Assembly: GCA_051876105.1 (NCBI GenBank)
Contig: JBJEHN010000072.1
Span: 6,282-70,281 of the forward strand
Direction of reading: 5' to 3'
DNA length: 64,000 nt
Origin: Coriobacteriales bacterium
GTDB lineage: Bacteria > Actinomycetota > Coriobacteriia > Coriobacteriales > QAMH01
Shown here: positions 2,477 to 64,000 of the stretch, piece by piece
Numbering within the stretch: the first letter of the stretch is position 1
Layout of the letters: every line of letters starts with the position of its first letter
Translations under genes and position numbers: made by a program
Notes under the pieces: model-generated
The model's database searches: none
The model's input: only the letters and a program-made list of their open reading frames with translations
What the model was told of the DNA's origin: nothing

Positions 2477-3487
2477 TTAGGCCTCGCGCATCATGAACTT
2501 GGCGAGGTCGACGACGCGCTGGCTGTAGCCCCACTCGTTGTCGTACCAGGCAACGCACTTGACGAAGGTGCCCTTGCCGCCCAGGACGTTGGTGAGGCCG
2601 GCGTCGAAGACGGAGCTGTGGGGGTTACCGATGACGTCGCAGCTGACGATCGGGTCCGTGCAGTACTGCAGGATGCCCTTCATCGGGCCCTCAGCGGCCT
2701 CCTTCATGGCGGCGTTGATCTCCTCGGCGGTGACCTCGGTCCTCAGCTCGCAGACCAGGTCGACCATGGAGCCGGTGGGGGTGGGGACGCGGGTGGCCAT
2801 GCCGTCCATCTTGCCCTTGAGCTCGGGGATGACCAGGGCCACGGCCTTGGCGGCGCCGGTGGTGGTGGGGATCTGGCTCACAGCGGCGGCGCGGCTGCGG
2901 CGGAAGTCCTTGTGGTGGACGTCCAGGATCTTCTGGTCGTTGGTGTAGGAGTGGATGGTGTTGATGAAGCCCTTCTCGATGCCGAACTTGTCGTTGAGCA
3001 CCTTGGCGAAGGGGGCCAGGCAGTTGGTGGTGCAGGAGGCGTTGGAGACCACGTGCTGGGTGGCCGGGTCGTAGGTGTCGTGGTTCACGCCCATGACGAT
3101 GGTGTTGTCGACCTCCTTGCCGGGGGCGGAGATGACGACCTTCTTGGCGCCGTTGTCCAGATGGGGCTGGCAGGACTCGCCGGTCTTGAGCTTGCCGGTG
3201 GTCTCGAGGACGACGTCAGCGCCCACGCTTGCCCAGTCGAGGTTCTTGGGGTCGCGGTCCTGGAAGGCCTTGATGCGGTGGCCGTCGAAGACGAAGTAGC
3301 CGTCCTCGGCGCGGGCCTCGTCGAACGCGATGCCCTGGCAGGAGTCGTACTTGGCCAGGTAGGCTGCGCACTCCAGGTCGGAGGGGTTGTTGATTGCCAC
3401 CACCTCGATTTCCGGATCAGCCTCGGCGATGCGGAAGACCAGGCGGCCGATGCGCCCAAAACCGTTGATGCCAACCTTGATGGTCAT
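2477..3487 (-). CDS. gap: Glyceraldehyde-3-phosphate dehydrogenase (type I)
   Basis: MTIKVGINGFGRIGRLVFR...SNASCTTNCLAP...WYDNEWGYS. Start ATG 3487 follows AAAGGAG. Confidence 0.95.
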   Translation of the reverse strand: MTIKVGINGFGRIGRLVFRIAEADPEIEVVAINNPSDLECAAYLAKYDSCQGIAFDEARAEDGYFVFDGHRIKAFQDRDPKNLDWASVGADVVLETTGKLKTGESCQPHLDNGAKKVVISAPGKEVDNTIVMGVNHDTYDPATQHVVSNASCTTNCLAPFAKVLNDKFGIEKGFINTIHSYTNDQKILDVHHKDFRRSRAAAVSQIPTTTGAAKAVALVIPELKGKMDGMATRVPTPTGSMVDLVCELRTEVTAEEINAAMKEAAEGPMKGILQYCTDPIVSCDVIGNPHSSVFDAGLTNVLGGKGTFVKCVAWYDNEWGYSQRVVDLAKFMMREA

Positions 3488-3632
3488 TTGAAGAGCTCCT
3501 TTTCTGCTTGACTGCCGGCCCTGTATACGAGGGATGTTTCGGGCCGGTTTCTCCCCCACAATCCTAAACGCTTGAAAGGTCGTTCGAGCGGCTCATCGCC
3601 CACCAGCCCGCAAGCGGAAGGGCCACGCTGGG

Positions 3633-4337
3633 CTACCAGGAGACAACGCCCTTGAAACCCGCGTAACCGCACAGCTGGCGCACGTTCTCCACCGGCCCGA
3701 AATTGATGCCCGAGGGCTTGGGGACCAAGATCTTGCAGGTGCGCGGCACGCCCTTGAAGGCGGTGCAGGTCTTCCACTTCTTCTTGAGCTTGACCAGGGT
3801 CTTGGTGTTGTTGGAGCCCTTGTTGGGCCCGATGCTCTCGAGCGTATTGCCCTTGAGGGTGATTTTCGAGGCTTCGGTGCAGCCCTTGAAGGCGCGGTCG
3901 CCGATTGCAGTGACGTTGGCACCGATGACCGCGGACTTGATCTTGTGGCCCTTGGTGTTGTTGAAGGCGTCCTTGCCGATCGCCGTCACCTTGAGCGCAA
4001 CCGACCCGAACCCGCCGGCGGTGAAGCTCACGGTTGCAGGCACCTTGGCAGCTGTCCCGGAGCCCTCGAACTTGAGCAGCGCGGCCTCGCAGCTGTCCTT
4101 CTCGATGGCGGCAGAGCTGATCTTGGTGACCTTGTAGGTGTAGCCGCCAACGACAAACTCAGCGCCCTTGAAGCTCTCGGCTGCGGGCGGGGTGGGCTCG
4201 ACCTCGCCAGGCTCCCCAACCACGGGGGCGCTGCCGCCGGGGGCGGCTGCTTCTTCGGCAGATGCCAGCGGGGCGGCAGCGAGCGAGCATGCGAGGCACG
4301 CGCCGCACACGGCGGCGATCACGGTCTTCAAACGCAT
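3633..4337 (-). CDS. Secreted/surface protein with BspA-like leucine-rich repeats
   Basis: Signal-peptide-like N-terminus MRLKTVIAAVCGACLACSLAAAPLASA. Repeated ...VTAIGKDAF.../...VTAIGDRAFKGC...ITL... units are typical of LRR_5/BspA repeats. Start ATG 4337 follows GGGAGG. Confidence 0.6.
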   Translation of the reverse strand: MRLKTVIAAVCGACLACSLAAAPLASAEEAAAPGGSAPVVGEPGEVEPTPPAAESFKGAEFVVGGYTYKVTKISSAAIEKDSCEAALLKFEGSGTAAKVPATVSFTAGGFGSVALKVTAIGKDAFNNTKGHKIKSAVIGANVTAIGDRAFKGCTEASKITLKGNTLESIGPNKGSNNTKTLVKLKKKWKTCTAFKGVPRTCKILVPKPSGINFGPVENVRQLCGYAGFKGVVSW

Positions 4338-4454
4338 AGAACCTCCCAGATGAAACGCGGTGCTGACCCGAGTATAGGGGCAGCGTGCGGGATCGCCGGA
4401 TTCCCCAGCAAACCCCACAGCCCCGCAGCAGGCGGGCGGCGGGGCGGGCGCGAT

Positions 4455-5525
4455 CTAGAACACGACGAGCTGGTCGCGGTTGATGAACTCCTCGGCGCCG
4501 CGCTGGCCCAGGCACCCGCGCAGCTGGCCGGCGCCGTAGCCCGCCAGCCCGCGGCCCAGCAGGCGTCCCTGCGCGTCGACGACGTCGACCGGGTCGCCCG
4601 CCTCGAACGCGCCTTGCACCTCCACAATGCCCACGGGCAGCAGGCTCGCGCCCTTCTCCTGCAGCGCGCGCACGGCACCAGCGTCGCAGCTCACGCGGCC
4701 CTTGACCTTGCCGCCCAGCGCGATCCAGCTCTTGCGGGCGTGCATCCCCAGGCTCTCGCTGTCGAAGAAGCGGGTGCCCACGCTGCGGCCATGGCAGGCG
4801 TCCGTGACGGCATTGCGGCGGTGGCCCTCGCAGATCACCATGGGGATGCCGGCGCTCATGAGCACCTTGGCCGCTGCCACCTTGGTGAGCATGCCGCCGC
4901 TGCCGCTGGCGCTGCCCACGCCGCCGGCGCTGGCCTCGATCTCCTGCGAGAGCTTGCCCACCTGCTCGAGCAGCTCGGCGTCCTTGTCCTTGCGGGGGTC
5001 GGCCGTGTAGAGGCCGTCGATGTCGCTCAGCAGGACCACGAGGTCGGCGTCGATGGCGGTGGCGACCATGGCGGCCAGGGTGTCGTTGTCGCCAAAGCGA
5101 ATCTCGTCCACAGCAACCGTGTCGTTCTCGTTGATGACGGGCACCGCGCCCTGCTGCAGCAGCTGGTCGATGGTGGCGCGGGCGTTGAGGTAGCTTTCGC
5201 GGTTGCCAGTGGTGGCGCGGGTGAGCAGCACCTGGCCCACCGGCATGCCAAAGCAGCGGAACGTGTCAGCGTAGGCGTTGACCAGCGAGACCTGGCCAAT
5301 CGCCGCAGCCGCCTGCAGCATGCTCATCTCCGTGGGGCGCGGGCCGCTGTGGCCCATGATCTGCAGGCCCACGGCGATCGAGCCGCTGGTGACGATGACC
5401 GTCTGCCAGCCCTCGTCGCGCAGGGCGGCGGCCTCGGTGGCCAGGCGGCCGATGAAGGCGCGGTCCAGGCGCCCGTCCTCCCCCACCAGCGTGGAGGAGC
5501 CGATCTTCACAACAACGCGCTTCAC
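4455..5525 (-). CDS. proB: Glutamate 5-kinase (with C-terminal PUA-like domain)
   Basis: MKRVVVKIGSSTL...VTSGSIAVG...INENDTVAVDEIRFGDNDTLAA... Confidence 0.92.
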   Translation of the reverse strand: MKRVVVKIGSSTLVGEDGRLDRAFIGRLATEAAALRDEGWQTVIVTSGSIAVGLQIMGHSGPRPTEMSMLQAAAAIGQVSLVNAYADTFRCFGMPVGQVLLTRATTGNRESYLNARATIDQLLQQGAVPVINENDTVAVDEIRFGDNDTLAAMVATAIDADLVVLLSDIDGLYTADPRKDKDAELLEQVGKLSQEIEASAGGVGSASGSGGMLTKVAAAKVLMSAGIPMVICEGHRRNAVTDACHGRSVGTRFFDSESLGMHARKSWIALGGKVKGRVSCDAGAVRALQEKGASLLPVGIVEVQGAFEAGDPVDVVDAQGRLLGRGLAGYGAGQLRGCLGQRGAEEFINRDQLVVF

Positions 5526-5537
5526 AGGCTTGCTCCT

Positions 5538-7019
<1,482 letters not shown>

Positions 7020-20277: not shown

Positions 20278-20463
20278 TGCGCAGTGTCACCTTTCCTGCC
20301 GCCTGGCTGAGCGCGGCGTTTCCTTTCTGCAACCGTCACATAGTACCCCCAAACCCCTGGCGGGTGCAGCAAGCGGCCCCGCCTCTACACCGAAGGCCCA
20401 CAGGGGCCCTGCTGGAAGGCGCGCTATACTCGGGTGGAACGCAAGGCGAAGCAGGAGGTTTCT

Positions 20464-20769
20464 GTGGGACGACTCAGCACCATCGAAGACCTTGAGCAGA
20501 GGGTCGAACACGAGGCCCAGGCTGCCGCCGCTGCTGCCGCCGCACAGGCGCCGGAGCATGCGGCCCCGCAGCAGGCAACCGCGCAGGCAGCCGGCCCCCA
20601 GGCAGCGCAGCAGGCGCCCAAGTCGCGGGCCCAGCTCGAAGCCGAGTTCCACGGGCTCGGCACGCAGACCAAGCGCGACGGTGGCCACACCGCCCTCATC
20701 GTCGCAGCGGTGGTCATCGTCGTCGCAGCGGCACTCTACATCGCCAACTACTCCCTGCACTTCTTCTAG
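20464..20769 (+). CDS. Hypothetical tail-anchored membrane protein with Ala/Gln-rich low-complexity region
   Basis: GTG 20464 lies 5 nt after AGGAGG (20453-20458). C-terminal TM is ALIVAAVVIVVAAALYIANY. No family recognised. Confidence 0.4.
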   Translation: MGRLSTIEDLEQRVEHEAQAAAAAAAAQAPEHAAPQQATAQAAGPQAAQQAPKSRAQLEAEFHGLGTQTKRDGGHTALIVAAVVIVVAAALYIANYSLHFF

Positions 20770-20781
20770 GGGGCGCAAGCG

Positions 20782-21642
20782 ATGGCAAGCTACGAGAGCT
20801 ACCCGGAAAAGCCCCAGACCCCGCCCAAAGACCCCGGCAAGAGCCGCCTGCGCACCGTGCTCGCCATCCTCATCGTGGTGCTGCTGGTGGTGGCCGCCTT
20901 GGTGGGCGTCATGGTCTGGCGCAACGGCACCGTGAGCAACGCCCGCCAGCCAGACACCGAGGCCCTGGTCCAGAGCACCGCTGGCGTCTCGTCCGTGAGC
21001 TTCCAGCCCGTCGAGCTCGAGGGCATGCCGGCATGCAGCAAGCTCTACGGCAAGACGCTTGCGCAGGTCCGCGCACTCAAGGGTTCCCAGCTGGCCTTCG
21101 ATTCCAAGAAGCTCGCCCCCGCCGGCGAGCTGCCCGCCGGCCTCGGCAGCACCGCCGCGGCGCCCAAGTACAAGGCGACCGCCTCCCTGCAGGGCTGCAA
21201 GGGCGCCTACCTCACGCTCTACTTCGGCAAGGCCAAGAAGGTCGTGGGCGCGTACTACAGCTTCGACCTCGACGAGCTGGGCGTAGCAGAGGCTGAGTTC
21301 TCCGTCTACCTGGCAGACGGCACCGTCGCGTCCTCGCTGCTCTGCGGCGTAGGGCTGGACAAGGACCGCTGCTCCAAGACCGCCGTCGAGGCCAAGACAA
21401 GCGCCGCCCCCGTTCAGGAGGACAGCGGCATGCGCAGCTGCACCATCGGCGACGACACGGGCGCCAAGCTGAAGAAGACCAGCACGACCAAGAAGGTCTA
21501 CAGCAAGAAGAAGGCGGCCTACGTCAAGAAAAAGCTCACCAAGAAGGTGCAGGTCGACTTCATGAGCTGGCAGCTCACCCAAACCTACCGCTACAGCCCC
21601 GAAGGCCAGACCACCCGCACCGCCGAGCTCGCGCTCTCATAG
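20782..21642 (+). CDS. Hypothetical single-pass membrane protein (extracytoplasmic domain, Lys-rich C-terminal part)
   Basis: N-terminal TM LRTVLAILIVVLLVVAALVGVMVW. High-GC3 codon usage. No family recognised. Confidence 0.5.
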   Translation: MASYESYPEKPQTPPKDPGKSRLRTVLAILIVVLLVVAALVGVMVWRNGTVSNARQPDTEALVQSTAGVSSVSFQPVELEGMPACSKLYGKTLAQVRALKGSQLAFDSKKLAPAGELPAGLGSTAAAPKYKATASLQGCKGAYLTLYFGKAKKVVGAYYSFDLDELGVAEAEFSVYLADGTVASSLLCGVGLDKDRCSKTAVEAKTSAAPVQEDSGMRSCTIGDDTGAKLKKTSTTKKVYSKKKAAYVKKKLTKKVQVDFMSWQLTQTYRYSPEGQTTRTAELALS

Positions 21643-21690: not shown

Positions 21691-22572
21691 TTAGGCTGGC
21701 AGCTGCAGGAGCTCGGTGCCGAGGCGCAGGTAGTCCTCGATGTCGAGGGACTCGCCGCGGGCCTTGGGGTCGATGCCACAGCGCTCCAGCAGCTCGTCGA
21801 CCACGGCTGCGTCGAAGCGCGTCCTCATGGAGTTGCGTATGTTCTTGCGGCGCTGCGCGAAGGCGGCGTCTGCCACCTGGCAGGCCGCCTGCACCACCGC
21901 CGCGTCATCGCACAGCTGGCTGCGCTCCAGGCGGATGACTGCGCTCTCCACGCGCGGCGCGGGGTGGAAGCAGCGCGGGCTCACCTGGAAGCGCCCCGTT
22001 GTGCGCGCGTGCATGCGCAGCTTGACGGTGTAGGCGCCATAGTCCTTGCAGCCCTTCTGCGCGGCGATGCGGTCCGCGACCTCGCTTTGCACCATGACGG
22101 TCATGCTCTGCAGGAACTCGAAGCGCTCGAACCAGTCCAAGATCACCGTGGCCGCCACCGCGTAGGGCAGGTTGGCCACCAGCATGGTGGGCAGCGGCGC
22201 GCCCAGGGCGGCGTAGGCCTCCTCGAGCTGTGCGCGTTGCACCTTGAGCGCATCTGCGCTGATCACGCGGTAGCGGTCGCTGTGGAAGGCCGTGGTCTCT
22301 GCCAGAACGGGGAGCAGGTCCTCGTCGCGCTCGACCGACACGACCGTGCCGTGGTCGAGCAGTGCCACGGTGAGCGTGCCGATGCCGGGGCCGATCTCCA
22401 AGATGCTGTTGCCCGCACCCTCGTCCTCGAGCAGGCCGGCAAGCTGCAGGATGCGGCCGATGACGTTGTCTTCCACCAGGAAGTTCTGGCCCAGGGAGTA
22501 CTTGGCGGCCAGGCCGAAGCGCTCCAAGGTCCCCAGGGTGGCGCTGCGGTTGGCCAAGGGCGAGTAGCTCAT
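21691..22572 (-). CDS. rsmA: 16S rRNA (adenine1518/1519-N6)-dimethyltransferase
   Basis: MSYSPLANRS...LGQNFLVEDNVIGRI...ILEIGPGIGTLT...VANLPY... Start ATG 22572 overlaps the upstream stop (ATGA). The track ORF carries a 149-aa spurious extension. Confidence 0.92.
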   Translation of the reverse strand: MSYSPLANRSATLGTLERFGLAAKYSLGQNFLVEDNVIGRILQLAGLLEDEGAGNSILEIGPGIGTLTVALLDHGTVVSVERDEDLLPVLAETTAFHSDRYRVISADALKVQRAQLEEAYAALGAPLPTMLVANLPYAVAATVILDWFERFEFLQSMTVMVQSEVADRIAAQKGCKDYGAYTVKLRMHARTTGRFQVSPRCFHPAPRVESAVIRLERSQLCDDAAVVQAACQVADAAFAQRRKNIRNSMRTRFDAAVVDELLERCGIDPKARGESLDIEDYLRLGTELLQLPA

Positions 22573-23129
22573 CGCACCTCCTCTGCAATGGCGCGCGCCA
22601 GCTCCGGCACGCGCTCGAGCCGGTAGCTGCCGGCGGTGAAGTCGTGCACGCGCTGTGGCTCCAGGCGCAGGCCCGTGCTGTTGAGTGCGCTGGTGGCGAT
22701 GGCAACCAGCGGCTCGTAGCCGAAGGGGTCGCCGCCCTCCCCCACCGCCAGCAGGTGGGCCGGGCGCTTGGGCGGCAGAGGCCGGCCGAGCACGTAGCGG
22801 CGCGCCCAGTAGACCTGGCAGCGGTCGAGCGCGGCCTTGAGCCAGCCGCTGGGGCCGGCGAAGTAGACGGGTGCCACCACCACAGCGGCGCTGCAGGAGT
22901 CCATGTGACGGCTGAGCACGCCGAAGCCGTCCCCCGCGATCACGCACTCGCCCGTGGCAGAGCAGCTGCCGCAGCCCGTGCAGGCGGCGACGGGGTACTC
23001 GGCCAAGGGGTAGAGGCACACGCGGCAGCCCAGCTGGCGCAGCTCGCCGGCAAGCGCCTTGGCAAGGGCGGCGCTGCGGCCCTCCTTGCGCGGGGAGCCC
23101 ACCAGTATCAGGACCTCGGGTTGCGTCAC
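22569..23129 (-). CDS. Iron-sulfur flavoprotein-like (Isf / NADPH-dependent FMN reductase fold)
   Basis: VLILVGSPRKEGRS... flavodoxin-like N-terminus plus the compact Cys motif CTGCGSCSATGEC (CX2CX2CX5C). GTG start 23129 overlaps the tatD stop (GTGA) and follows GAGGAGGAG. Confidence 0.7.
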   Translation of the reverse strand: MTQPEVLILVGSPRKEGRSAALAKALAGELRQLGCRVCLYPLAEYPVAACTGCGSCSATGECVIAGDGFGVLSRHMDSCSAAVVVAPVYFAGPSGWLKAALDRCQVYWARRYVLGRPLPPKRPAHLLAVGEGGDPFGYEPLVAIATSALNSTGLRLEPQRVHDFTAGSYRLERVPELARAIAEEVR

Positions 23130-24187
23130 AGCTCCTCCTCGGGGTAGCGCGGGCGGTCGAGCAGCTCGACGGCGTTGCGGTACAGGCGCTGGCACATGCC
23201 CAGCTCGTCCAGCCCGCCCTGCAGGGCGGTAAAGCTTGGCTGCAGCAGCGGGCGAGGCTCCTCGCCTTCCGGCAGGTCCATGGGGCGCGGGCTCATCAGC
23301 TCCAGCGCGCGCTCCCGCCCCGCATAGCCCAGGCAGTCGAGCAACATGCGCAGGGTGTAGGCGGTGTGGGCCGGCTCGCAGACCACGCCGCGCAGGGGCT
23401 CGGGCGCCATGAAGGGGGCGTCTGTCTCTGTGAGCAGGCGCTCTGCGCTCACCAGGGCAACAGCGGCCCTGGTGCCGCACTCCCTCTTGAAGGTGAGCGG
23501 GCCGCCCAGTGCAACGTGGCAGCCCAGCTCGGCAAAGGGCTCCAAGTCCTGCGGGCCCAGGTTGAAGCAGTGCAGGATGCAGCCCGCTTGGGGCACACCT
23601 TCGCGCTTGAGGATCTCCAGGGCCTCGGCATGGGCCTCGCGGATGTGCAGCGAAACCGGAAGCCCCAGCTCATGGGCCATGTTCAGCTGCAGGGCGAACA
23701 CGCGGCGCTGGTCCTCGCGCGGGCTTTTGTCGTAGTGGTAGTCGAGGCCGATCTCTCCCAGGCAGCTGGTGGCGGGGTGGGCCAGCAGCTCCTCCAGTAT
23801 GGGCCGGCCGAAGTCCCAGCAGCGCGCGTTGTGCGGGTGCACGCCGCAGGCCATGCGGATGACGGGGACCTCCGCGCCCGCCATGCCCCACTCGTCGAGC
23901 AAGGTGCGCGCGGCGGCGCGCCATTCGCCCAGGCGCGCGTAGATGTCCCTCGACCAGACCTCGCCTTCGGCCTGCTCGGCTGGGTCGGTGATGCACTCGA
24001 TGAAGCCCACCCCGTGCGCAGCCGCGCGGGCGAGCGCCAGCGGCACGTCCGCCAGCATGCCCAGGTGGCAATGCGTGTCTGCAACCGGCGCACCCTGCGG
24101 CAGCACCGGCGCCGCCTTCAGCTTCCCCTTGGAGTTGCGGAAGGCGGCGTCGCACGCCTCAAAGCTCTTGAAATCACTCAAAGACAT
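23126..24187 (-). CDS. TatD-family metal-dependent hydrolase/DNase
   Basis: VADTHCHL...ACGVHPHNA...GEIGLDYHY...SLHIREAH...ILHCF...ETDAPF. Start is ambiguous (ATG 24187 after GAGAGG, or ATG 24217). Confidence 0.85.
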   Translation of the reverse strand: MSLSDFKSFEACDAAFRNSKGKLKAAPVLPQGAPVADTHCHLGMLADVPLALARAAAHGVGFIECITDPAEQAEGEVWSRDIYARLGEWRAAARTLLDEWGMAGAEVPVIRMACGVHPHNARCWDFGRPILEELLAHPATSCLGEIGLDYHYDKSPREDQRRVFALQLNMAHELGLPVSLHIREAHAEALEILKREGVPQAGCILHCFNLGPQDLEPFAELGCHVALGGPLTFKRECGTRAAVALVSAERLLTETDAPFMAPEPLRGVVCEPAHTAYTLRMLLDCLGYAGRERALELMSPRPMDLPEGEEPRPLLQPSFTALQGGLDELGMCQRLYRNAVELLDRPRYPEEEL

Positions 24188-26010: not shown

Positions 26011-30390
<4,380 letters not shown>

Positions 30391-30393
30391 GTC

Positions 30394-34797: not shown

Positions 34798-36033
34798 CTA
34801 GAACGCCCAGTTGCCGTTGCGGAACACGGGCACCGCGGTGCCGTCTGCGCGCAGGCCGTCGATGTTGAGGTCGTGAGTGCCGATCATGAAGTCGACGTGC
34901 GCGGCGCTCTCGTTGAGGCCGGCCTCCAGGAGCTGCTCGTCGCTGAGGTCGTAGCCGCCCTCGAGCACCTCCGGAAAGCCCTTCCCCAGCGCCAGGTGGC
35001 AGGAGGCGTTCTCGTCGTAGAGGGTCTCCAGGAAGAGCGTGCCCGTGTTGCGGATGGGGCTGTCAAAGGGCACCAGGGCCACCTCGCCCAGGTAGCAGGA
35101 ACCCTCGTCGGTCTGGATGATGCCGGCCAGCACGTCCTTGCCCACGCGGGCGTCCCACTCCACGGCGCGCCCCTCCTCGAAGCGGATCCAGAAGTCCTCC
35201 ACGGGGCTGCCGTTGTAGATGAGCGGCAGGGCGCTGTGGACCACGCCGCTGGTGAGCAGGCGCTGCGGCGAGGTGAAGATCTCCTCCGTGGGGATGTTGG
35301 GGAAGAAGTAGGTGCCGTCCGCGCCCTCCTGGCCCCCGCCCTCCCAGTGGCTGCCCTCGATGAGGCCCACCGTGAGGTCCGTGCCGTTGGAGGCGGTGTA
35401 GTGGAGCTGGGTGAAGCCCTGGGCGTTGAGCCAGGCCTTGCGCGCGTCGAAGCTGGCGCGGTGCTCGTCCCAGGCGGCGAAGGGGTCCTCCGTCACGCGC
35501 GAGGTGTCGAGTATGGCCTCCCACAGGGCGGCCAGGGCCTCCTCCTCGCCCAGCTCCGGGAAGACCTGCCTGGCCCAGGCGGGGCTGGCGGCGCCGGCGA
35601 TGCACCAGGCGCAGCGGCCGCGGTCGAGCGCGTCGTAGAACTCCTTGCACTGGCGGTGCCCCGCCACCACGCGCGCCATCACCTTGCGCTGGTCGACGCC
35701 CTTCATAATCTGGGGGTCGTCGCTCAGGATGGTGAGCACGGCGGCACCGTTGCGGGCCGCGCTGTTGTTGCGCAGGGCCGCCCACTCGGGCATGGTGTCG
35801 AAGACCTCCTGGGGCGCGTGGTCGTAGGTCAGGCGCTCCGTTGCCTGGTCGCCCCACTGCACGCTCACCAGCTTGGCGCCGTGCGCGTAGGCGGCGGCGA
35901 CCACCTTGCGCGTGAAGGCCGCCACCTCCAGCGGCGAGCGGACGAGCAGCTCCTGGCCCTCCTTCAGGGCGCAGCCCTTCACCACCAGCAGCTCGGCATA
36001 GCGCTCCAGGCGCTCCTCCAGGGTGCTCGGCAT
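34798..36033 (-). CDS. Aminopeptidase, M29 (AmpS/PepS/aminopeptidase T) family
   Basis: MPSTLEERLERYAELLVVKGCALKEGQELLV...YDENASCHLALG...HVDFMIG. Start ATG 36033 follows GGAGGAG inside the HK 3' end. The track ORF extension is spurious. Confidence 0.85.
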   Translation of the reverse strand: MPSTLEERLERYAELLVVKGCALKEGQELLVRSPLEVAAFTRKVVAAAYAHGAKLVSVQWGDQATERLTYDHAPQEVFDTMPEWAALRNNSAARNGAAVLTILSDDPQIMKGVDQRKVMARVVAGHRQCKEFYDALDRGRCAWCIAGAASPAWARQVFPELGEEEALAALWEAILDTSRVTEDPFAAWDEHRASFDARKAWLNAQGFTQLHYTASNGTDLTVGLIEGSHWEGGGQEGADGTYFFPNIPTEEIFTSPQRLLTSGVVHSALPLIYNGSPVEDFWIRFEEGRAVEWDARVGKDVLAGIIQTDEGSCYLGEVALVPFDSPIRNTGTLFLETLYDENASCHLALGKGFPEVLEGGYDLSDEQLLEAGLNESAAHVDFMIGTHDLNIDGLRADGTAVPVFRNGNWAF

Positions 36034-36035
36034 GG

Positions 36036-36965
36036 CTACTCCTCCCCTTCCTCGGTCTCTGCGGCGCCGTCCTCGGGCGGCAGGCTGGGCAGCGCCACGA
36101 TGAAGGCGGCGCCCGCGTTGGGCAGGTTGACGGCCTCGACCGTGCCGCTCATGGCGGTGGTGAGCGCCTTGACGATGGCCAGCCCCAGGCCGCTGTTGCC
36201 GCTGCCCTTGTGGCGCACGCGGCTCTGGTCTGCGCGGTAGAAGCGGTCGAAGAGGTGGCTGGGGTCCTCGTCGCCGAAGCCGGGGCCGTCGTCGACCACG
36301 GCGAACACGCTGTAGCCTTTGACGTAGCTGATCTCCACGCGCACGCGCTCCTTGGAGTAGCGGCTGGCGTTCTCGATGAGGTTCACCAGGATCTGGTTGA
36401 TGGCGTCTGCGTTGCCGTTGACGTCGGGCGCCTCGCCGCTGACCTCCAGGCGGCAGCCGCGCTCCTCCAGCAGCTCGCCCATGAGCAGGGCACAGTTGTC
36501 GGCCACGGCGCGCAGGTTGAGGCGGGAGAGCTCCATGTCCTGGCCCTCGGCCTTCTGGAGCGTGAGCAGGTCGTTTGCCAGGCGGGTGAGGCGGTCGCAC
36601 TCGTTGACGATCTGCGCGAGGAAGCGCCGCTGCAGCTCCTCCGGCACGCCGCCGTCGAGCAGGGTCTCAGCCGTGCCGCGGATGGCGGTCAGCGGGGTGC
36701 GGATCTCGTGGCTCACATCGCTCACGAACTGCGCCTGGCGCGCCTCCTCGGTGAGGAGCTCGTTGACGTTGTCGACGATGAAGTCCATGACCTCGCGCGG
36801 CGGGTTCTCCTTCTTGAAGTACTCGAGGACGGCGGGCGGCAGCTCGCGGGCGTAGAACTCCTCCGCAGTGGCGCAGCACTCGTCGCCGCCGCAGGCGCAG
36901 CCGTTCTCGCAGGCGCCCGCGCGGCGCGCCGCCTGGTGCTTCTTGTCGCTGTTGATGCCGGCCAT
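36036..36965 (-). CDS. Soluble sensor histidine kinase (HisKA + HATPase_c) with N-terminal Cys cluster, no TM segment
   Basis: H-box FVSDVSHEIRTPLTAI, N-box NLIENASRY, G-boxes DDGPGF and GSGLGLAIV. The N-terminus reads ...AGACENGCACGGDECCATAEEF with no hydrophobic helix. The ORF cannot extend upstream because coaX stops 10 nt away. Confidence 0.85.
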   Translation of the reverse strand: MAGINSDKKHQAARRAGACENGCACGGDECCATAEEFYARELPPAVLEYFKKENPPREVMDFIVDNVNELLTEEARQAQFVSDVSHEIRTPLTAIRGTAETLLDGGVPEELQRRFLAQIVNECDRLTRLANDLLTLQKAEGQDMELSRLNLRAVADNCALLMGELLEERGCRLEVSGEAPDVNGNADAINQILVNLIENASRYSKERVRVEISYVKGYSVFAVVDDGPGFGDEDPSHLFDRFYRADQSRVRHKGSGNSGLGLAIVKALTTAMSGTVEAVNLPNAGAAFIVALPSLPPEDGAAETEEGEE

Positions 36966-45407: not shown

Positions 45408-46382
45408 CTAGAAGCGCTTTTGGTCTTTGAACTCGCTGAGGGCCAGGTAGGCGTCCAGGCGCAGGCGAGGGACGTGGGGGCTCACGTTGCAGCCGGGCTC
45501 GTGGGTGTGGCTGCAGTCCGAGAAGCGGCAGCCGACAGCGAGCTCCATGACGTCTGGGAAGGCCGCCTCCAGCGCCTGCTCCAGGTCCATGATCTGCAGG
45601 GTGCGCAGGCCGGGGGCGTCGATGATGAGGCCGCCGCCCGGGACCTTCCAGATGCGGCGGGCCACCGTGGTGTGGCGGCCGCGGTCGTCGCTTTCGCGCA
45701 CGGCGCTCGTGGCCATGTACTCGGCGCCGAGCAGGGCGTTGACGAGCGTCGACTTGCCCACGCCGCTCTCGCCCAGCAGCAGCGCCGTGACGCCGGGGGC
45801 TATGAGCGCGCGGACCTCCTCGACGCCTTGGTCGAGCTTGGAGGCTATCGCCAGGCAGCGCGTGTCGGGCGCGAGCTCGGCCAGCTGGGCAGCGGCCTGC
45901 TCCACCCGCTGCGGCTCCACGCAGTCCGCCTTCGTCAGCACGAAGACCGGCTCTGCCCCGCAGCCGCGGGTGGCGGTCATCTGGCGGGCGGCCAGGCGGA
46001 TGTCGAGGCCCTCGCCCGTGAGGCTCTGGCACAGGAAGACGAGGTCGGCGTTGGCGGCGAGCACCTGGCGGCGGACCTGCTTCTCGCGGCCCACGCGCTT
46101 GACGCGCGCGATCTCCATGCAGCGCGGCATGATCTGGGCGATGATGGCCTTCTCGTGCCCCTCCGGGATGCGCAGGGCCACCCAGTCGCCCACGGCCACG
46201 ATGCTGTCGTCGCTCTTCTTGATCTCTGTGGCCAGCTCTGCGCGCAGCTCCTCGGCGGCGGTGTTCACCAGGGGGTAGCCCCTGTCGAGCGAGGTCACGC
46301 GCCCCGGCTCCAAGCCCGGCTCGAGCCCTTGCGCCCATGCGCGCACCGCGTCTGTGTACCCCAGGTCCTCGAATGCGATCAT
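45408..46382 (-). CDS. rsgA: Ribosome small-subunit-dependent GTPase A
   Basis: Circularly permuted GTPase: LTKADC..., GESGVGKSTLVNAL, and a Zn-finger CRFSDCSHTHEPGC. Confidence 0.9.
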   Translation of the reverse strand: MIAFEDLGYTDAVRAWAQGLEPGLEPGRVTSLDRGYPLVNTAAEELRAELATEIKKSDDSIVAVGDWVALRIPEGHEKAIIAQIMPRCMEIARVKRVGREKQVRRQVLAANADLVFLCQSLTGEGLDIRLAARQMTATRGCGAEPVFVLTKADCVEPQRVEQAAAQLAELAPDTRCLAIASKLDQGVEEVRALIAPGVTALLLGESGVGKSTLVNALLGAEYMATSAVRESDDRGRHTTVARRIWKVPGGGLIIDAPGLRTLQIMDLEQALEAAFPDVMELAVGCRFSDCSHTHEPGCNVSPHVPRLRLDAYLALSEFKDQKRF

Positions 46383-46415: not shown

Positions 46416-47045
46416 CTAGCGGCTCTCCTTCTCGGCGCGGCGGTCCTCGCGCCAGCGCAGTATGCCGAACACCAACAAGAGCATGAAGGCCACAGCGCAC
46501 AGCTGCAGGCCCGTCGTAATGTCCTGGTCGTCCGCGTAGTGGGTGATGGCGCCGCCGGGGTCGAGCACGCGGATGGTGAGGGCGTGCACGTCGAGCTCGC
46601 CTTGGTGGTCTTCGCAGTCGAGCGAGTAGATGCCGCGCACCTGGATGGTGGTGCCCGCCGTGGAGTAGCTGCCCACGTTGGAGATGCGCGCGGCCATGTC
46701 GTCGTCGACCCACACGCCGATGCAGCTGCCGTCCGCGCCGAGCACGTTGAGCCACTTGTGGCCGCTGCCGCCCCTCATGATGTCTCCCACGACCTCGCCC
46801 GTGAAGCTCACCGTGGCCTCGTTGAGCGCGCGGTTAGCCGCGGTGAGGACGCCCACGCGAGTGGGGACCACCACGTTGTCGGTGTCGTCGACCTCGGGCT
46901 CGCCCTCCTCGAGCGCCTCGTAGCGGTTTGAGAGCGTGCCGATGTCGAGCAGCGGCTCGTCGGCCAGCGCGGCCGCAGGCACCAGCGCGGCAACGGCGAG
47001 CAGCGCGGCGGCGGCGTAGCGCAGCATGCGGGCAGGCAGCCTCAT
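46416..47045 (-). CDS. Hypothetical bitopic protein: signal/anchor helix, beta-rich (OB-fold-like?) domain, C-terminal TM; paralogous to the C-terminal module of the second TrkH protein
   Basis: MRLPARMLRYAAAALLAVAALVPAAALA... ...GEVVGDIMRGGSGHKWLNVLGADGSCIGVWV...HQGELDVHALTIRVLD... ...LQLCAVAFMLLLVFGIL. ATG 47045 overlaps the trkH stop (ATGA). The track ORF 46416..48584 is an artefactual extension. Confidence 0.55.
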   Translation of the reverse strand: MRLPARMLRYAAAALLAVAALVPAAALADEPLLDIGTLSNRYEALEEGEPEVDDTDNVVVPTRVGVLTAANRALNEATVSFTGEVVGDIMRGGSGHKWLNVLGADGSCIGVWVDDDMAARISNVGSYSTAGTTIQVRGIYSLDCEDHQGELDVHALTIRVLDPGGAITHYADDQDITTGLQLCAVAFMLLLVFGILRWREDRRAEKESR

Positions 47046-48577
47046 CGGCGCTCCCTCCCCCACCTGAAGCCGTCCTTGGGCGCCAGGCTCAGCGCGATCT
47101 GCAGCACCATGGCGAACACCGCCACGAACTCTAGGCGGCCCAGCAGCATCTCGACGATGTACACGAACTCCAAAAACGGCGGCATGCCCGGCGCCACGAT
47201 GCCGGCGGAAAGCCCGCCGTTCGACGCGGCAGAGATCGACTCGAAGATCGCCGGCAGGGCGTCGTAGCCGCAGATGATCCCCGCGATCGCCCCCAGGGCG
47301 AAGGTGAGCACGTACATCAGGAAGATGGTCATGGCGTTGGAGGCGAGGTCGGCCGTGAGCAGCTTGCGGCCCAGGTGGTAGTAGAAGGTGCGCGGCATGA
47401 CGCGGTCTGGCACCAGCGCCTCGCGCAGGGTCTGCACCACCGTCGTGGCGCAGATGCCGATGCGGAAGGCCTTGATGCCGCCCGTGGTCGAAGACGACGA
47501 GCCGCCGATGATCATCCCGACGCCGATCATGAACAGCGCGCCGGAGCCCATGGCGTAGATGAGCTGCCCCGAGTACACCGTGGAGAAGCCCACGTTCGTG
47601 GCAGCCGAGATGACAAGAAAGACCACGCGGCGCAGCAGCGCAGTGAAGCTGTTGAAATAGTCGCCGGACATCACCACGATGGTCAAGATCAGCACCAGGC
47701 CGAAGATCCAGATGGCCATGGTGTGGACCTCGATGTCCTTCAGGAGGTTCTTGATGCGGCCCTTCCAGATGTCGCCGTAGAGCGTGAAGTTGATGATCCC
47801 GAAGAACATCAGGCACACGGCGATGATCTCCAGCGGCCAGGAATGGTAGGCCATGATGCCCATGGACTGCCCCGTCATGCCGCCGGTGGCGAAGGCGGAG
47901 ATGGTGATCCACAGCGAACTGAAGGCAGCGCGCAGCGGCGCCTGGCCGCCCAGCAGCAGCGGGATGGCGCAGACCGCCGTGCCCACCACGATGATGATGG
48001 CCGTGACCTTGAAGATGAAGCGCGCCATCTGGCGGATCTCCGGCATGACGCGGCCCTCGCGGGCCTCGGCGTTGTAGATGGAGGCTGCGCCCGAGCCCGT
48101 GCCGAAGATGCCCAGCGCCAGGGCGATGACCAGGACGCCCACACCGCCCATCAGGTGCAGGATGAAGCGCCAGGTGATCATGGAGAGCGCCATGTGGTCG
48201 AGGTCGATGGCGATGGAGAGGCCGGTTGCCGTGATGCCGGAGACGCCCTCGAGCAGGGCGTCTTGGAAAGTAGCGTAGTGCCCGGAGAACCACAGCGGCA
48301 GCGAGCCGAAGAACGCCAGCACGCCCCACGAGAGCGCCGTGACCACCAGCGCCTGGTGGCGCAGCATGGTGCCGCGCTTGACCTGGGCCAGCGTGAGCAG
48401 CGCGCCCACGATGCCGGTGAGGCCTATGCACTTGAGGAAGATGGCGGCCTGGTCGAGCTCGTCGAGCGCCAGGGCCAGGGCGAAGGGCACGCACATGACG
48501 GCGGCCATCAGGAGGATGAGCGCCCCCAGGTAGTGGCAGATGATCCGCCAGTCCTCCAGATGCAGCCGGGTGACCAA
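47042..48577 (-). CDS. trkH: TrkH/KtrB-family cation (K+) transporter, paralog 1
   Basis: Four pore-loop glycine motifs (SGITATGLS, SAFATGGM, SAATNVGFS, AASNGGLSAG) and an SSSTTGGIKAFR gating-loop motif. TTG start 48577. Confidence 0.85.
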   Translation of the reverse strand: MVTRLHLEDWRIICHYLGALILLMAAVMCVPFALALALDELDQAAIFLKCIGLTGIVGALLTLAQVKRGTMLRHQALVVTALSWGVLAFFGSLPLWFSGHYATFQDALLEGVSGITATGLSIAIDLDHMALSMITWRFILHLMGGVGVLVIALALGIFGTGSGAASIYNAEAREGRVMPEIRQMARFIFKVTAIIIVVGTAVCAIPLLLGGQAPLRAAFSSLWITISAFATGGMTGQSMGIMAYHSWPLEIIAVCLMFFGIINFTLYGDIWKGRIKNLLKDIEVHTMAIWIFGLVLILTIVVMSGDYFNSFTALLRRVVFLVISAATNVGFSTVYSGQLIYAMGSGALFMIGVGMIIGGSSSSTTGGIKAFRIGICATTVVQTLREALVPDRVMPRTFYYHLGRKLLTADLASNAMTIFLMYVLTFALGAIAGIICGYDALPAIFESISAASNGGLSAGIVAPGMPPFLEFVYIVEMLLGRLEFVAVFAMVLQIALSLAPKDGFRWGRERR

Positions 48578-48583
48578 GGCGCA

Positions 48584-48775
48584 CTACTCCATGATGAAGC
48601 TGACCAAGAAGGTGGCGGCCGTCAGCACCAGCAGGAAGCAGACCACCATCAGCAGCACCAGAGCCAGGCCCTTGGCGGGGCCCTTGGCCTTGTTCTGGGT
48701 CTCCTCGATCTTGTCTCTCACAGGGCCTCCCTTCGCAGCGCTGCCCGTGCTCGCCTTAGCATCGCGGTGAGACAC
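48584..48775 (-). CDS. Possible small (63-aa) membrane protein between the two trkH genes
   Basis: GTG start, high GC3, and one C-terminal TM (GLALVLLMVVCFLLVLTAATFLVSFIM). Its 3' end supplies a GGAG 9 nt before the trkH TTG start. No clear RBS of its own, so this is speculative. Confidence 0.3.
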   Translation of the reverse strand: MSHRDAKASTGSAAKGGPVRDKIEETQNKAKGPAKGLALVLLMVVCFLLVLTAATFLVSFIME

Positions 48776-48799
48776 CCGCGAGAAGGCCTATTGTACGCC

Positions 48800-50995
48800 C
48801 TAGAGCCTCAAGCCCAGGAAGCGGATGCGCGACCTGCCCCGCAGGAGGCGCTCGACCACCAGGACGGCCGCAGCCAGCCCCAGCAGGCACACGCCGGCGA
48901 TGCCGAGGCCGGTGTTGGCCTCGTGGGCCACAGGGTAGCCCGCCACCCTCACGGCAAGCGTGACGGCGTGGACCTCGAGCTCGCCAGAATGCATGGAGCA
49001 GGCCTGGTGGTAGGTGCCCTCCACCACGACCTTGTCGCCCTGCACGCCGTACTTGCCGAAGGTGCCCACGCGCTCGGCCAGGCTGTTGCGCACGTAGACG
49101 GAGATGACCTTGCCCTCCTGGTCCTGGATGTTGAGCCAGCTGTGGCCTGTGCCGGCCTTGACGGCGTAGCCCACCACCTCGCCTGAGATGCGCACCTTGT
49201 CGCCGTCCATGCGGCTGCTGGCGCCGAGCAGCTCCGAGATGCTCGAGCTGCGGTAGCTCTGTGTGAACGCGAGCTCCATGCTGGGCTCTTCTGCCACAGC
49301 CGCGCGCGGGGCGCTGGCGGCCAGCAGCCCACCGGCCAGGGCGAGGCTCAGCAGCAAGGGCAGCAGGGCCTTGGGGCTGTTGCCCTCCAGGAAGAGCACC
49401 CTGCGCAGGCGGCGCAGGCGGGCGCGGCGGTTGTCGCGGCGCTGAGACTTGCGGCTGCTGCTCACGCCCTCGGGGATGACGTTGCGGTGGGGGCGCAGGC
49501 TGGCAACCAGGCTGGCGAAGGCGGCGATGAGCGCCACAAACTCCAAGCGGCCGGCCCACATCATGAGCATGGCCATGAGCAGCAGGCTCGACGGCATGGT
49601 GGAAGCGGCCTGCCCCACGCAGATGCCGGTGTTGGTGACATAGGAGATGCTCTCGCAGATGGCGTCGACGGCGCCGTAGCCGTGCGCGATGAACACCGCC
49701 GCGCCGATGGCCGCGGCCATGATGAAGAGCGTGGTGACGACCATGGCCAGCTGGGCGCCCTCGGAGCTCGCGCGCCGCGGCCCGAAGTGCTCGTACGTGG
49801 CGGTAACGCGCACGCTGTCTGGGAAGAGGCTGCGCTTCACGCTGATGCCGAACCATCGCAGCACCTGCAGCCCGCGGAAGACCTTGAGGCCGCCAGCCGT
49901 AGAGCACGAGCAACCGCCCATGAACATGGCCGCCATGATGAGCATCAGCGCCCCGTCTGGGAAGCTCGCGCCCATCTGCCCGGGGTAGACGGTCTGCATG
50001 CCGGAGGTCGTAGCAGCGCTCACCACCATGAAGGTGCTGTGGTTGAACAGGCCGGTGAGGCTCGTGAAGATGCCCTCGCGGCAGAGTATGATGCTCACGA
50101 TCACCACCAGCAGGAACAGCCACACCGCGTAGGCGCGCAGCTCGGAGTTGCGCAGGATGGTCTGGCGGGCGTCGTCGCTGGCGCTGCGGCTGATGGAGAG
50201 CGCGAAGATCGCGAAGTTGAGCGAGCCCAGGATCATCAGCACCGCCACGAAGCCGTTGAGCACGGTGGAGTGGTAGAAGATCAGGCTCGAGTTGTGCGGG
50301 ACGAAGCTGCCCGTGCTGAAGGCGTTGCCGCTGAGCCACAGCCCGTTCATGAGCGCGTCTGGCAGGGACATGCCGCCCAAGGCCAGCACCACGGCGAGCG
50401 CTGCCATACCCAAGACCACCATGCCGGCCATGACGGTCCAGATGAGCTGGCCGGTGCTGCGCAGCGCTGCGGTGAGGGCATCGCGGCGGCTGCGGGCGCT
50501 GTCGCGCGCGGAGTAGCCCCCATCGCCAAAGAAGCCCAGGTACAGGGCAGAGACGATGATGGCCTGTCCGCCCGCCAGCGAAAGCAGCGTGCGCCAGGTG
50601 GACTGCGCGTAGGAGAGGTGCTCCACATCCTCCAGGCAGGTGACGCCGGTGGAGGTGAGGGCGGAGACGCTGTCGAAGAACGCTCCCAGGAAGCCGTCGA
50701 AGCAGCCCGAGAGGTACAGGGGGATGGCGGCGAAGAAGCCCACCAGCACCCAGCCGAAGCCGCACAGCAGCAGCGAGCGGCGACGGTCCAGGCGCCCGGC
50801 CTTGAGCAGCGACAGCAGCGCGCCCGCAAAAGCGGTGAAGCCCGAGGAGAACACGTAGACCATGCCCTCCGAGGTCTCGCCAAAGCACGCGGCGATGGCA
50901 GCCGGCATCAGCATCAGGGCGCCGCTGATAACCAGGATGACCCCCAGGTAGTGGCCTACCGTGCAGACGTCCTTGAGATGGAAGCGCAACAACAT
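48800..50995 (-). CDS. trkH: TrkH/KtrB-family transporter, paralog 2, fused in-frame to a C-terminal anchor/beta-rich/TM module
   Basis: MLLRFHLKDVCTVGHYLGVILV... parallels the paralog-1 N-terminus. Pore motifs and CSCSTAGGLKVFR are present. A basic linker is followed by ...GEVVGYAVKAGTGHSWLNIQDQEGKVISVYV...HSGELEVHAVTLAVRV... and a TM. Start set to ATG 50995. Confidence 0.8.
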   Translation of the reverse strand: MLLRFHLKDVCTVGHYLGVILVISGALMLMPAAIAACFGETSEGMVYVFSSGFTAFAGALLSLLKAGRLDRRRSLLLCGFGWVLVGFFAAIPLYLSGCFDGFLGAFFDSVSALTSTGVTCLEDVEHLSYAQSTWRTLLSLAGGQAIIVSALYLGFFGDGGYSARDSARSRRDALTAALRSTGQLIWTVMAGMVVLGMAALAVVLALGGMSLPDALMNGLWLSGNAFSTGSFVPHNSSLIFYHSTVLNGFVAVLMILGSLNFAIFALSISRSASDDARQTILRNSELRAYAVWLFLLVVIVSIILCREGIFTSLTGLFNHSTFMVVSAATTSGMQTVYPGQMGASFPDGALMLIMAAMFMGGCSCSTAGGLKVFRGLQVLRWFGISVKRSLFPDSVRVTATYEHFGPRRASSEGAQLAMVVTTLFIMAAAIGAAVFIAHGYGAVDAICESISYVTNTGICVGQAASTMPSSLLLMAMLMMWAGRLEFVALIAAFASLVASLRPHRNVIPEGVSSSRKSQRRDNRRARLRRLRRVLFLEGNSPKALLPLLLSLALAGGLLAASAPRAAVAEEPSMELAFTQSYRSSSISELLGASSRMDGDKVRISGEVVGYAVKAGTGHSWLNIQDQEGKVISVYVRNSLAERVGTFGKYGVQGDKVVVEGTYHQACSMHSGELEVHAVTLAVRVAGYPVAHEANTGLGIAGVCLLGLAAAVLVVERLLRGRSRIRFLGLRL

Positions 50996-51004
50996 AATGC
51001 GGGG

Positions 51005-51010
51005 ATTATA
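51005..51010 (-). promoter_or_regulatory. TATAAT -10 box 9 nt upstream of the trkH-2 ATG (possible leaderless transcript)
   Basis: Minus strand reads GCGCTATAATCCCCGCATTATG. There is no SD-like sequence before the ATG, and the -35 match is poor. Confidence 0.35.
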
Positions 51011-51029
51011 GCGCGCAGCCGCAGAGGGC

Positions 51030-51069
51030 AAAAATGGGACAGTGGGCTACGTCCCCACTGTCCCATTTT
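51030..51069. terminator. Conserved palindromic terminator, copy d
   Basis: AAAAATGGGACAGTGGG-CTACGT-CCCCACTGTCCCATTTT, 14 nt after the argG stop (51083). Confidence 0.75.
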
Positions 51070-63546: not shown

Positions 63547-64000
63547 CTAGGCGGCAGCGCTCCTCGCCCCCTCCCTGCTCTTCTTGGCCTTCTTCTTCAC
63601 CTTCGCCGGGCGGCCCGGGAGCTGGGGCTGGCAGTCGCCGCACCTGAGCATGAGCAGCGCCACGAGGTTGTCGGTGTTGCGGAAGCCGTAGCCCATCCTC
63701 ACCGTCACCTTGATCTTGTTGTTGATGGCCTCGACCCTCCCGTTGCTGATGCCGAGCTCGACTGCGGCGACGATGTCGTCGCGGCGGCGGCGCACCTTCT
63801 TCTCCACGGCCACGACCTTGGCGATCTTGCAGTAGGCGGCCCTGTGCATCCAGTCGTCGAGCAGCTCGGCGGCCTCCGCGGCGTCTGCGGCCTGGAAGAC
63901 GGCGCGCAGGTCCTCCTTGAGCTCCCATGCCCTGATCAGCCTCGAGCCGGCCCTCTTCTTGAGCGCCTCGAGCCTGGCCCTCTGGTTGTCGGTGAGGTCC
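63547..64000 (-). mobile_element. ISL3-family transposase gene, C-terminal part only (5' part beyond window end)
   Basis: Own translation: ...DLTDNQRARLEALKKR...WELKEDLRAVFQA...LLDDWMHRAAYCKIAKV...ISNGRVEAINNKIKVTVRMGYGFRNTDNLVALLMLRCG. This shows the characteristic SNG-VEG/AiNNKIK...YGFRN block of ISL3 transposases. IS ends not determined. Confidence 0.8.

Follow-up and report, generated by a model that had tools for sequence, protein, structure and literature searches.

Tandem split and fused TrkH proteins with a conserved, probable OB-fold partner of predicted extracytoplasmic location in Coriobacteriia

The window analysed here, a 64-kb stretch of contig JBJEHN010000072.1 from the metagenome-assembled genome of a Coriobacteriales bacterium, with a GC content of ~67%, harbours two genes for TrkH-type K+ transport proteins within a consecutive row of four genes, all on the minus strand (Table 1). 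Read along that strand, the row encodes TrkH-2, a 45-residue single-span membrane peptide, TrkH-1 and a 209-aa protein with a predicted oligonucleotide/oligosaccharide-binding (OB) fold, hereafter the module. A first-pass annotation of the same DNA, made from its letters and open reading frames (ORFs), had described the two TrkH genes as tandem paralogs, one with its TGA overlapping the ATG of the 209-aa gene and the other continuing in frame into a homologous module. All three observations hold: both proteins match Pfam TrkH and are recognisably related to each other, the overlap (ATGA) reads ...gagcgccgATGAggctg, and TrkH-2 is a single 731-aa ORF whose residues 569–725 align to the 209-aa protein with 34% identity (E=2e-23). 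That annotation had overlooked a third conserved part of the locus, the 45-aa peptide gene at 48584–48721.

The annotation had also asked whether a frameshift might lie behind the difference between the two copies. The same 731/45/511/209-aa gene layout was assembled independently in four Logan sequencing runs, and a search with the fused protein recovered a whole clade of ~50 clusters of full-length fused homologs, 700–930 aa in length and with identity down to 38%. Both the split and the fused form are thus genuine, and a frameshift artefact does not explain them.

Table 1. Features of the TrkH locus, in positions of the window.
Feature	Coordinates	Strand	Remarks
TrkH-2, fused, 731 aa	48800..50995	-	single ORF: TrkH pore, basic linker, signal-like helix, OB ectodomain, C-terminal membrane helix
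TrkH pore domain of TrkH-2 (residues 1-504)	49484..50995	-	34% identity with TrkH-1; invariant columns in 45 homologs
TrkH-2 basic cytoplasmic linker (RKSQRRDNRRARLRRLRR) and signal-peptide-like helix (residues 505-568)	49292..49483	-	AVA before EEP; pLDDT 44-69
TrkH-2 OB-fold ectodomain, as modelled (residues 569-694)	48914..49291	-	34% identity with the 209-aa protein; pLDDT 84-96
TrkH-2 C-terminal membrane helix and basic cytoplasmic tail (residues 695-731)	48803..48913	-	helix 695-730, pLDDT 91-96
45-aa single-span membrane peptide gene	48584..48721	-	GTG start, basic N-terminus, one membrane helix; called in four independent assemblies
TrkH-1, unfused, 511 aa, TTG start	47042..48577	-	Pfam TrkH E=8.6e-33
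OB-fold module gene, 209 aa	46416..47045	-	ATG overlaps TrkH-1 stop codon (ATGA)
Module predicted signal peptide (residues 1-28, ...AALA before DEP)	46962..47045	-	from sequence and AxA enrichment in the family; predicted cleavage
Module acidic ectodomain with OB core (residues 29-172)	46530..46961	-	E84, W98, Y127, C144, H147, D152, H154 near-invariant
Module C-terminal membrane helix and basic tail (residues 173-209)	46419..46529	-	AlphaFold model and family conservation
Terminator hairpin (51036-51055) and TATAAT box (51005-51010)	51005..51055	-	terminator search; TATAAT read from sequence

Both paralogs carry the hallmarks of a TrkH pore subunit. TrkH-1 matched Pfam TrkH (PF02386) with 114 bits (E=8.6e-33) and TrkH-2 with 79 bits over residues 82–495 (E=2.7e-22), against a cut-off of 27, and the two proteins share 34% identity (E=1e-82). 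Residues 3–476 of Vibrio parahaemolyticus TrkH align to residues 10–489 of TrkH-1, the N-terminal D0 helices included, and the TrkH-1 filter segments TATGL, ATGGM, TNVGF and SNGGL match the Vibrio filter with all four pore-loop glycines kept. The intramembrane loop (D3M2) of TrkH-1, IIGGSSSSTTGGIKAFR, aligns to its Vibrio counterpart with the pattern GGxxSTxGG(I/L/M)K, while the segment LLGRLEF aligns to the conserved D4M2 arginine (GRLE). Among 45 homologs of TrkH-2 the invariant columns comprise G117, G332, N455/G457, G360/G368/K371 and R483, with TGG as the consensus of the second pore repeat. The AlphaFold model of TrkH-2 (overall predicted template-modelling score, pTM, of 0.81) was matched by Foldseek to the TrkH structures 3PJZ, 4J9U and 6V4K (TMt 0.85–0.87, E ~1e-17), followed by KtrB, HKT and KdpA. 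Judged from sequence and model, the TrkH subunit is of the canonical design of the K+-transporter superfamily (SKT) and is a predicted K+ transporter. Against TIGR00933, the curated NCBIfam model for TrkH, the two proteins scored 213 and 142 bits, below its cut-off of 331, which marks both as members of a divergent subfamily.

The module itself is covered by no family in Pfam or NCBIfam, and Pfam BOF, CusF and KdpC were not matched either; the best score was a weak tRNA_anti_2 hit on TrkH-2 residues 585–662 (E=8.6e-5, 23.1 bits against a gathering threshold of 27), and sub-threshold tRNA_anti_2 matches in 3 of 27 module members were the only hits. Its AlphaFold model, built with a 27-sequence alignment, reached a mean predicted local distance difference test (pLDDT) value of 82.8, with 89–97 in the core. 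In the model, a helix at the N-terminus is joined by a linker of poor order to a barrel of five strands (78–91, 96–102, 108–114, 133–141 and 152–162), in which a short helix at 115–119 separates strand 3 from strand 4, and the chain ends in a long helix. The tail of TrkH-2 has the equivalent five strands with a helix past strand 3, at pLDDT 84–96. The best PDB matches that Foldseek returned for the module were OB domains, those of three aminoacyl-tRNA synthetases (Asn, Lys and Asp) and that of ExoVII (E ~1e-6). As modelled, the ectodomain is thus an OB fold, which bears out what the first-pass annotation had put forward as a guess.

When 1.84 billion representative proteins were searched with a profile of the module, 1231 representative clusters matched at E<=1e-3, 329 of them at E<=1e-30. 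Most members are 200–300 aa long, and fusions of 710–784 aa make up 10 among the best 150. Nearly all named members come from metagenome-assembled genomes (MAGs) labelled Coriobacteriales, Coriobacteriaceae, Coriobacteriia or Eggerthellaceae; a few distant ones are labelled Actinomycetes or Omnitrophota, two of which are probably mis-binned.

Conservation within the family is concentrated on a small set of residues. Of 194 diverse members, 95% or more retain each of E84, W98, Y127, C144, H147 and H154 as well as several glycines, and 97% have Asp or Glu at position 152. Strands 1 and 2 bear some of these residues, and the others fall in the strand 4–5 loop and where strand 5 begins; in OB folds, this region borders the customary ligand-binding face. 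Cys, two His and Asp/Glu form a typical set of metal ligands, classic for structural zinc, and the histidines could titrate with pH. Two other candidates were considered for these residues, a Cys-His-Asp catalytic triad of peptidase or sortase-like type and a CcmE-like haem site, and both were rejected since neither found a fold or motif match. The ectodomain of the 209-aa protein is acidic, with 24 Asp/Glu against 8 Lys/Arg, and the net charge of the OB core is negative in 189 of 189 members (median -10 over ~113 residues), which argues against nucleic-acid binding. In the C-terminal helix G179, G186, L182 and L189 recur with heptad spacing, suggestive of helix–helix packing. Only ~10 residues separate the barrel from this helix. 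The N-terminal linker ranges in length from 24 to 202 residues, and certain members have a long one of low complexity (e.g. P0099 and P0071; P and L numbers are our handles for proteins and loci).

The module adjoins TrkH, or is fused to it, wherever linkage could be judged. This was so at 18 of 18 loci from species-representative genomes, located with peptide patterns of a 14-sequence alignment (a narrow scan, which yielded MAGs of one subfamily only), and at 10 of 10 loci reached via homologous proteins, the module lying directly behind TrkH in each case where it was not fused. Metagenomes, scanned with a seed from a more distant second subfamily of the module, added 80 loci, 69 of which have TrkH directly upstream and 10 too little upstream sequence to judge by. 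The remaining one, L049, was rejected as a module locus devoid of TrkH, for a C-terminal fragment of TrkH is present upstream beside an assembly break; with this locus counted as linked, the metagenome tally is 70 of 70 testable loci and the overall one 98 of 98 (28 + 70). The first-pass annotation had regarded the split/fused pair as an argument for coupling and had proposed a survey of related genomes, and the survey strengthens that argument considerably. We regard the genomic association of TrkH and module as strongly supported, and their physical association as very likely. As a separate observation, positions 1–1400 of L049, upstream of the TrkH fragment, are unrelated to L050 though the rest of the two loci is 99.6% identical, a sign either of a chimeric assembly or of a rearrangement truncating TrkH.

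Overlap of the TrkH stop codon with the module start codon is shared by the window, L005, L109 and L111. A rough tree, built by neighbour joining from the TrkH portions, contains one old clade that is fused throughout and includes TrkH-2; other fused proteins are scattered among unfused relatives (P0054 beside TrkH-1, P0102 with L026, P0174 and P0161). Taken at face value, this branching suggests four or five independent events of fusion or fission. The two copies in the window differ as much in the pore as in the module (34% identity each), so the tandem pair appears to stem from duplication of the whole TrkH-plus-module unit.

The 45-aa peptide is a regular companion of unfused TrkH genes. 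Among 88 such genes of the family, 87 are preceded by a comparable ORF whose end lies within 70 nucleotides upstream, whereas fused genes of TrkH-2 type have none. Peptides representing both subfamilies as well as distant loci align free of gaps at a near-constant 45 residues, with a conserved Pro, a conserved Gly and an FL..L pattern, to which the second subfamily adds VR..G near the end; Pfam and NCBIfam hold no family for the peptide. Its presence before 87 of 88 unfused TrkH genes defines a conserved cassette of peptide, TrkH and OB module, and the order peptide, TrkH, module, rsgA is seen in Eggerthellaceae as well.

The likely topology of the module follows from its flanks. Arginines precede its first helix and a basic tail follows its last, a positive-inside pattern, and the C-terminus of TrkH is cytoplasmic in solved structures such as 3PJZ; on both counts the OB domain is predicted to lie outside the membrane. 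An AxA motif follows the hydrophobic helix ahead of the OB domain in 141 of 179 members (79%), including 11 of 11 fused proteins, against a background rate of 23% in random 18-residue windows. In the model of TrkH-2, this signal-like helix has a pLDDT of 44–69 in contrast to 91–96 for the C-terminal helix. The first helix is probably a signal peptide, internal in the fusions, which would be removed to leave the mature module held only by its C-terminal helix. The first-pass annotation had placed the module outside the membrane and tethered at both ends; the former agrees with our prediction, and the AxA enrichment and the low confidence of the first helix make the latter doubtful.

We postulate that the cassette encodes a three-part TrkH-type K+ uptake channel with an extracytoplasmic subunit, typical of Coriobacteriia, and we hold this reading, whose mechanism is drawn by inference, to be moderately probable. 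It builds on the observed homology, fold, strict linkage, recurrent fusion and residue conservation. The TrkH pore, the ~45-residue single-span peptide encoded upstream and the single-span OB protein encoded downstream would form a complex, with the module made either by translational coupling to TrkH or as part of the same chain. Its C-terminal helix and the small peptide would pack against the membrane domain of TrkH, and the OB domain would be seated on the outer face, near the pore mouth. There the near-invariant Glu, Trp, Tyr, Cys, His, Asp and His may form a binding site for a cation or for protons, through which the OB domain could tune K+ access or affinity from outside, much as KdpC is proposed to act on KdpA and as beta subunits do on P-type pumps. 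The helix that follows TrkH in the fused copy would serve as an internal signal sequence, probably cut at AxA, in which case split and fused genes would give equal mature products.

Several points weigh against this reading. First, topology and cleavage are deduced from the positive-inside rule and the AxA motif, and some members, L109 for example, have no clear AxA site. Second, the contact between OB domain and TrkH and the clustering of the invariant residues in a single site are, like the effect on transport, predicted features of the proposal. Third, the module has no relation in sequence or fold to KdpC, being an OB protein without a match to the KdpC Pfam family (PF02669) at E<=1 or E<=0.1. 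Lastly, a cytoplasmic TrkA or KtrA partner may be encoded elsewhere in the genome, and one locus, L027, from a MAG labelled Omnitrophota, carries two KtrA-like genes (221 and 227 aa) directly upstream of the peptide ORF, TrkH and module (2934–6393). It is the sole locus where genes for regulator of K+ conductance (RCK) domains accompany the cassette, and it implies that the module is not simply a replacement for an RCK ring.

The closest rival to a regulatory, three-part channel is that the module is purely a structural partner of TrkH, needed for folding, membrane insertion or stability, with its Cys, His and Asp residues holding a structural metal such as Zn2+ and with no part in regulation or in the handling of ions. 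The strict co-occurrence and the fusions would fit an obligate assembly partner equally well, and Cys, two His and Asp/Glu are, as general ligand chemistry has it, the classic ligands of structural zinc. KdpC, moreover, shows no conformational change in the Kdp cycle (PMC6255902). The invariant Trp98, Tyr127 and Glu84 and the uniformly acidic surface exceed what a structural metal site needs, and we consider this explanation rather unlikely, although the data do not separate it from the regulatory one. A bolder form of the latter, to which we give a similarly small share of belief, would make the acidic external OB domain a new class of accessory subunit: through its seven invariant residues it would detect a cation outside the cell, either a transition metal or protons, and thereby gate K+ entry or sharpen it. 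Together with the peptide it would replace the RCK ring, and signal peptidase would release it from the fusion.

How far RCK partners are missing bears on a further alternative. The first-pass annotation had found neither TrkA nor KtrA in the window, and our searches concur: Pfam detected no TrkA_N domain in ~40 of its ORFs, and tblastn with an RCK probe validated against PDB TrkA and KtrA found no RCK gene in the 64 kb. Nor did RCK genes occur within 4–10 kb of the cassette in ~110 related loci, L027 excepted. One may propose from this that OB subunit and peptide have replaced the TrkA/KtrA ring in Coriobacteriia and control gating from the outer side, the cue being an external ligand, for instance a metal ion or pH; the divergence of the TrkH subfamily (213 and 142 bits against the TIGR00933 cut-off of 331) and the invariance of the module histidines would suit such a role. 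The two KtrA-like genes of L027 speak against it, as does the frequent separation of trkA from trkH in the genomes of other bacteria. We judge this replacement improbable.

Much less probable still is that the module is an independent cell-surface protein, a binder of nucleic acids or cell-wall polymers that is merely co-transcribed with TrkH. Its nearest folds are indeed nucleic-acid-binding OB domains, and the long, low-complexity N-terminal linker of P0099 and P0071 would befit a surface protein. Such a protein would hardly adjoin TrkH at 98 of 98 loci across deep divergence, share start/stop overlaps with it and be fused to it in frame repeatedly; its OB domain, only ~10 residues from the membrane helix, has an acidic surface unsuited to nucleic acids or teichoic acids. 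To an assembly or frameshift artefact we assign a negligible chance, given the identical layout in four independent assemblies and the hundreds of split loci that stand beside the ~50 fused clusters across many projects.

Around the operon lie genes of other functions. Upstream is an arginine cluster in which Pfam confirmed argJ, argB and argD; argR and argG come next, the last followed by a near-perfect hairpin terminator with a T-run (51036–51055). A TATAAT box stands 9 nucleotides before the TrkH-2 ATG, so near as to suggest a near-leaderless transcript; a promoter scan called no full sigma-70-type promoter around this start, and Rfam detected no riboswitch around the operon, the cyclic di-AMP (c-di-AMP) element included. 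Downstream of the module follow rsgA and nrdD/nrdG. The rsgA gene (45408–46382, minus strand), for a GTPase of the small ribosomal subunit, begins 33 nucleotides past the module gene, a position kept across the Coriobacteriia loci L003, L006, L008, L009, L026, L109 and L111; it may be co-transcribed with the module, and no functional link between the two was evident. Loci L018–L022 belong to a single clade of Coriobacteriia; there, a large membrane protein (~1–1960) whose LTGE motif resembles that of P-type ATPases ends ~55 nucleotides upstream of the fused TrkH, an arrangement not present in the window.

Some features elsewhere in the window deserve mention. The ~1460-aa rpoC ORF (26011–30393, minus strand) has a C-terminal extension that matches PF03118, the C-terminal domain of the RNA polymerase alpha subunit, at residues 1320–1371 (E=3e-9). 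An ISL3-family transposase fragment lies at the window end (63547–63999, minus strand). At 20344–21642, in a region otherwise almost entirely on the minus strand, two adjoining plus-strand ORFs (141 and 290 aa) have a coding-like GC content at third codon positions (GC3) and no Pfam match. In two stop-to-stop ORFs of the minus strand the recognised domain begins late, at residue 263 for the RrnaAD methyltransferase (21691–23292) and at residue 217 for Peptidase_M29 (34798–36666), reflecting either internal true starts or long N-terminal extensions.

Compared with known OB proteins, the module would resemble the BOF family (YgiW/YdeI) and CusF in having a signal peptide followed by a small extracytoplasmic OB domain. 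CusF binds its metal cation via His and Met ligands and a Trp, a site of which the invariant Trp, His and Cys of the module are reminiscent. BOF proteins and CusF are soluble and not linked to TrkH, whereas the module has a C-terminal membrane helix and no BOF or CusF Pfam match. The best structural matches, the anticodon-binding OB domain of class IIb aminoacyl-tRNA synthetases and the large subunit of ExoVII, differ from it in being cytoplasmic, basic and nucleic-acid-binding where the module is acidic and predicted to be extracytoplasmic.

Trk and Ktr are major routes of bacterial K+ uptake, and to our knowledge all their described regulation proceeds through cytoplasmic RCK rings and nucleotides. 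With the Trk system, represented by Vibrio TrkH (3PJZ/4J9U), the proteins studied here share alignment over the full length, the filter glycines, the intramembrane loop, the GRLE arginine and a TMt of 0.85–0.87. The Coriobacteriia TrkH differs in being divergent, in its pairing with an OB subunit and a peptide and in having no trkA nearby, and one paralog of the window differs further by its C-terminal OB fusion. The first-pass annotation had known of no extracytoplasmic partner for TrkH or KtrB, and we likewise found in the literature no description of an extracytoplasmic or small-peptide partner for TrkH, KtrB, Trk or Ktr. If the proposed complex exists, the architecture of SKT channels would gain a further layer, made up of a conserved subunit outside the cytoplasm and a small peptide, and the repeated gene fusions make the interaction directly testable. 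The module would also define a protein family of more than 1000 clusters that has no Pfam or NCBIfam model and that looks characteristic of Coriobacteriia, a class which includes human gut members such as Eggerthellaceae.

The nearest parallel in overall design is the Kdp system. Of its subunits, KdpA belongs to the SKT superfamily; KdpC spans the membrane once, faces the periplasm close to the selectivity filter and has been proposed to increase the affinity for K+; and KdpF is a very small protein with one membrane span (PMC6255902). The cassette would match this arrangement, at the level of genes, in its SKT pore, outward-facing single-span subunit and small single-span peptide, all in one operon. 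The membrane anchor is N-terminal in KdpC and C-terminal in the module, and the cassette does not include a KdpB-like P-type ATPase, the only E1-E2 ATPase of the window lying ~45 kb away (2–1153). Should the three-part reading prove right, the OB subunit would be an independent counterpart to KdpC, and the comparison with Kdp is offered in that sense, as a possible mode of action and not as family membership.

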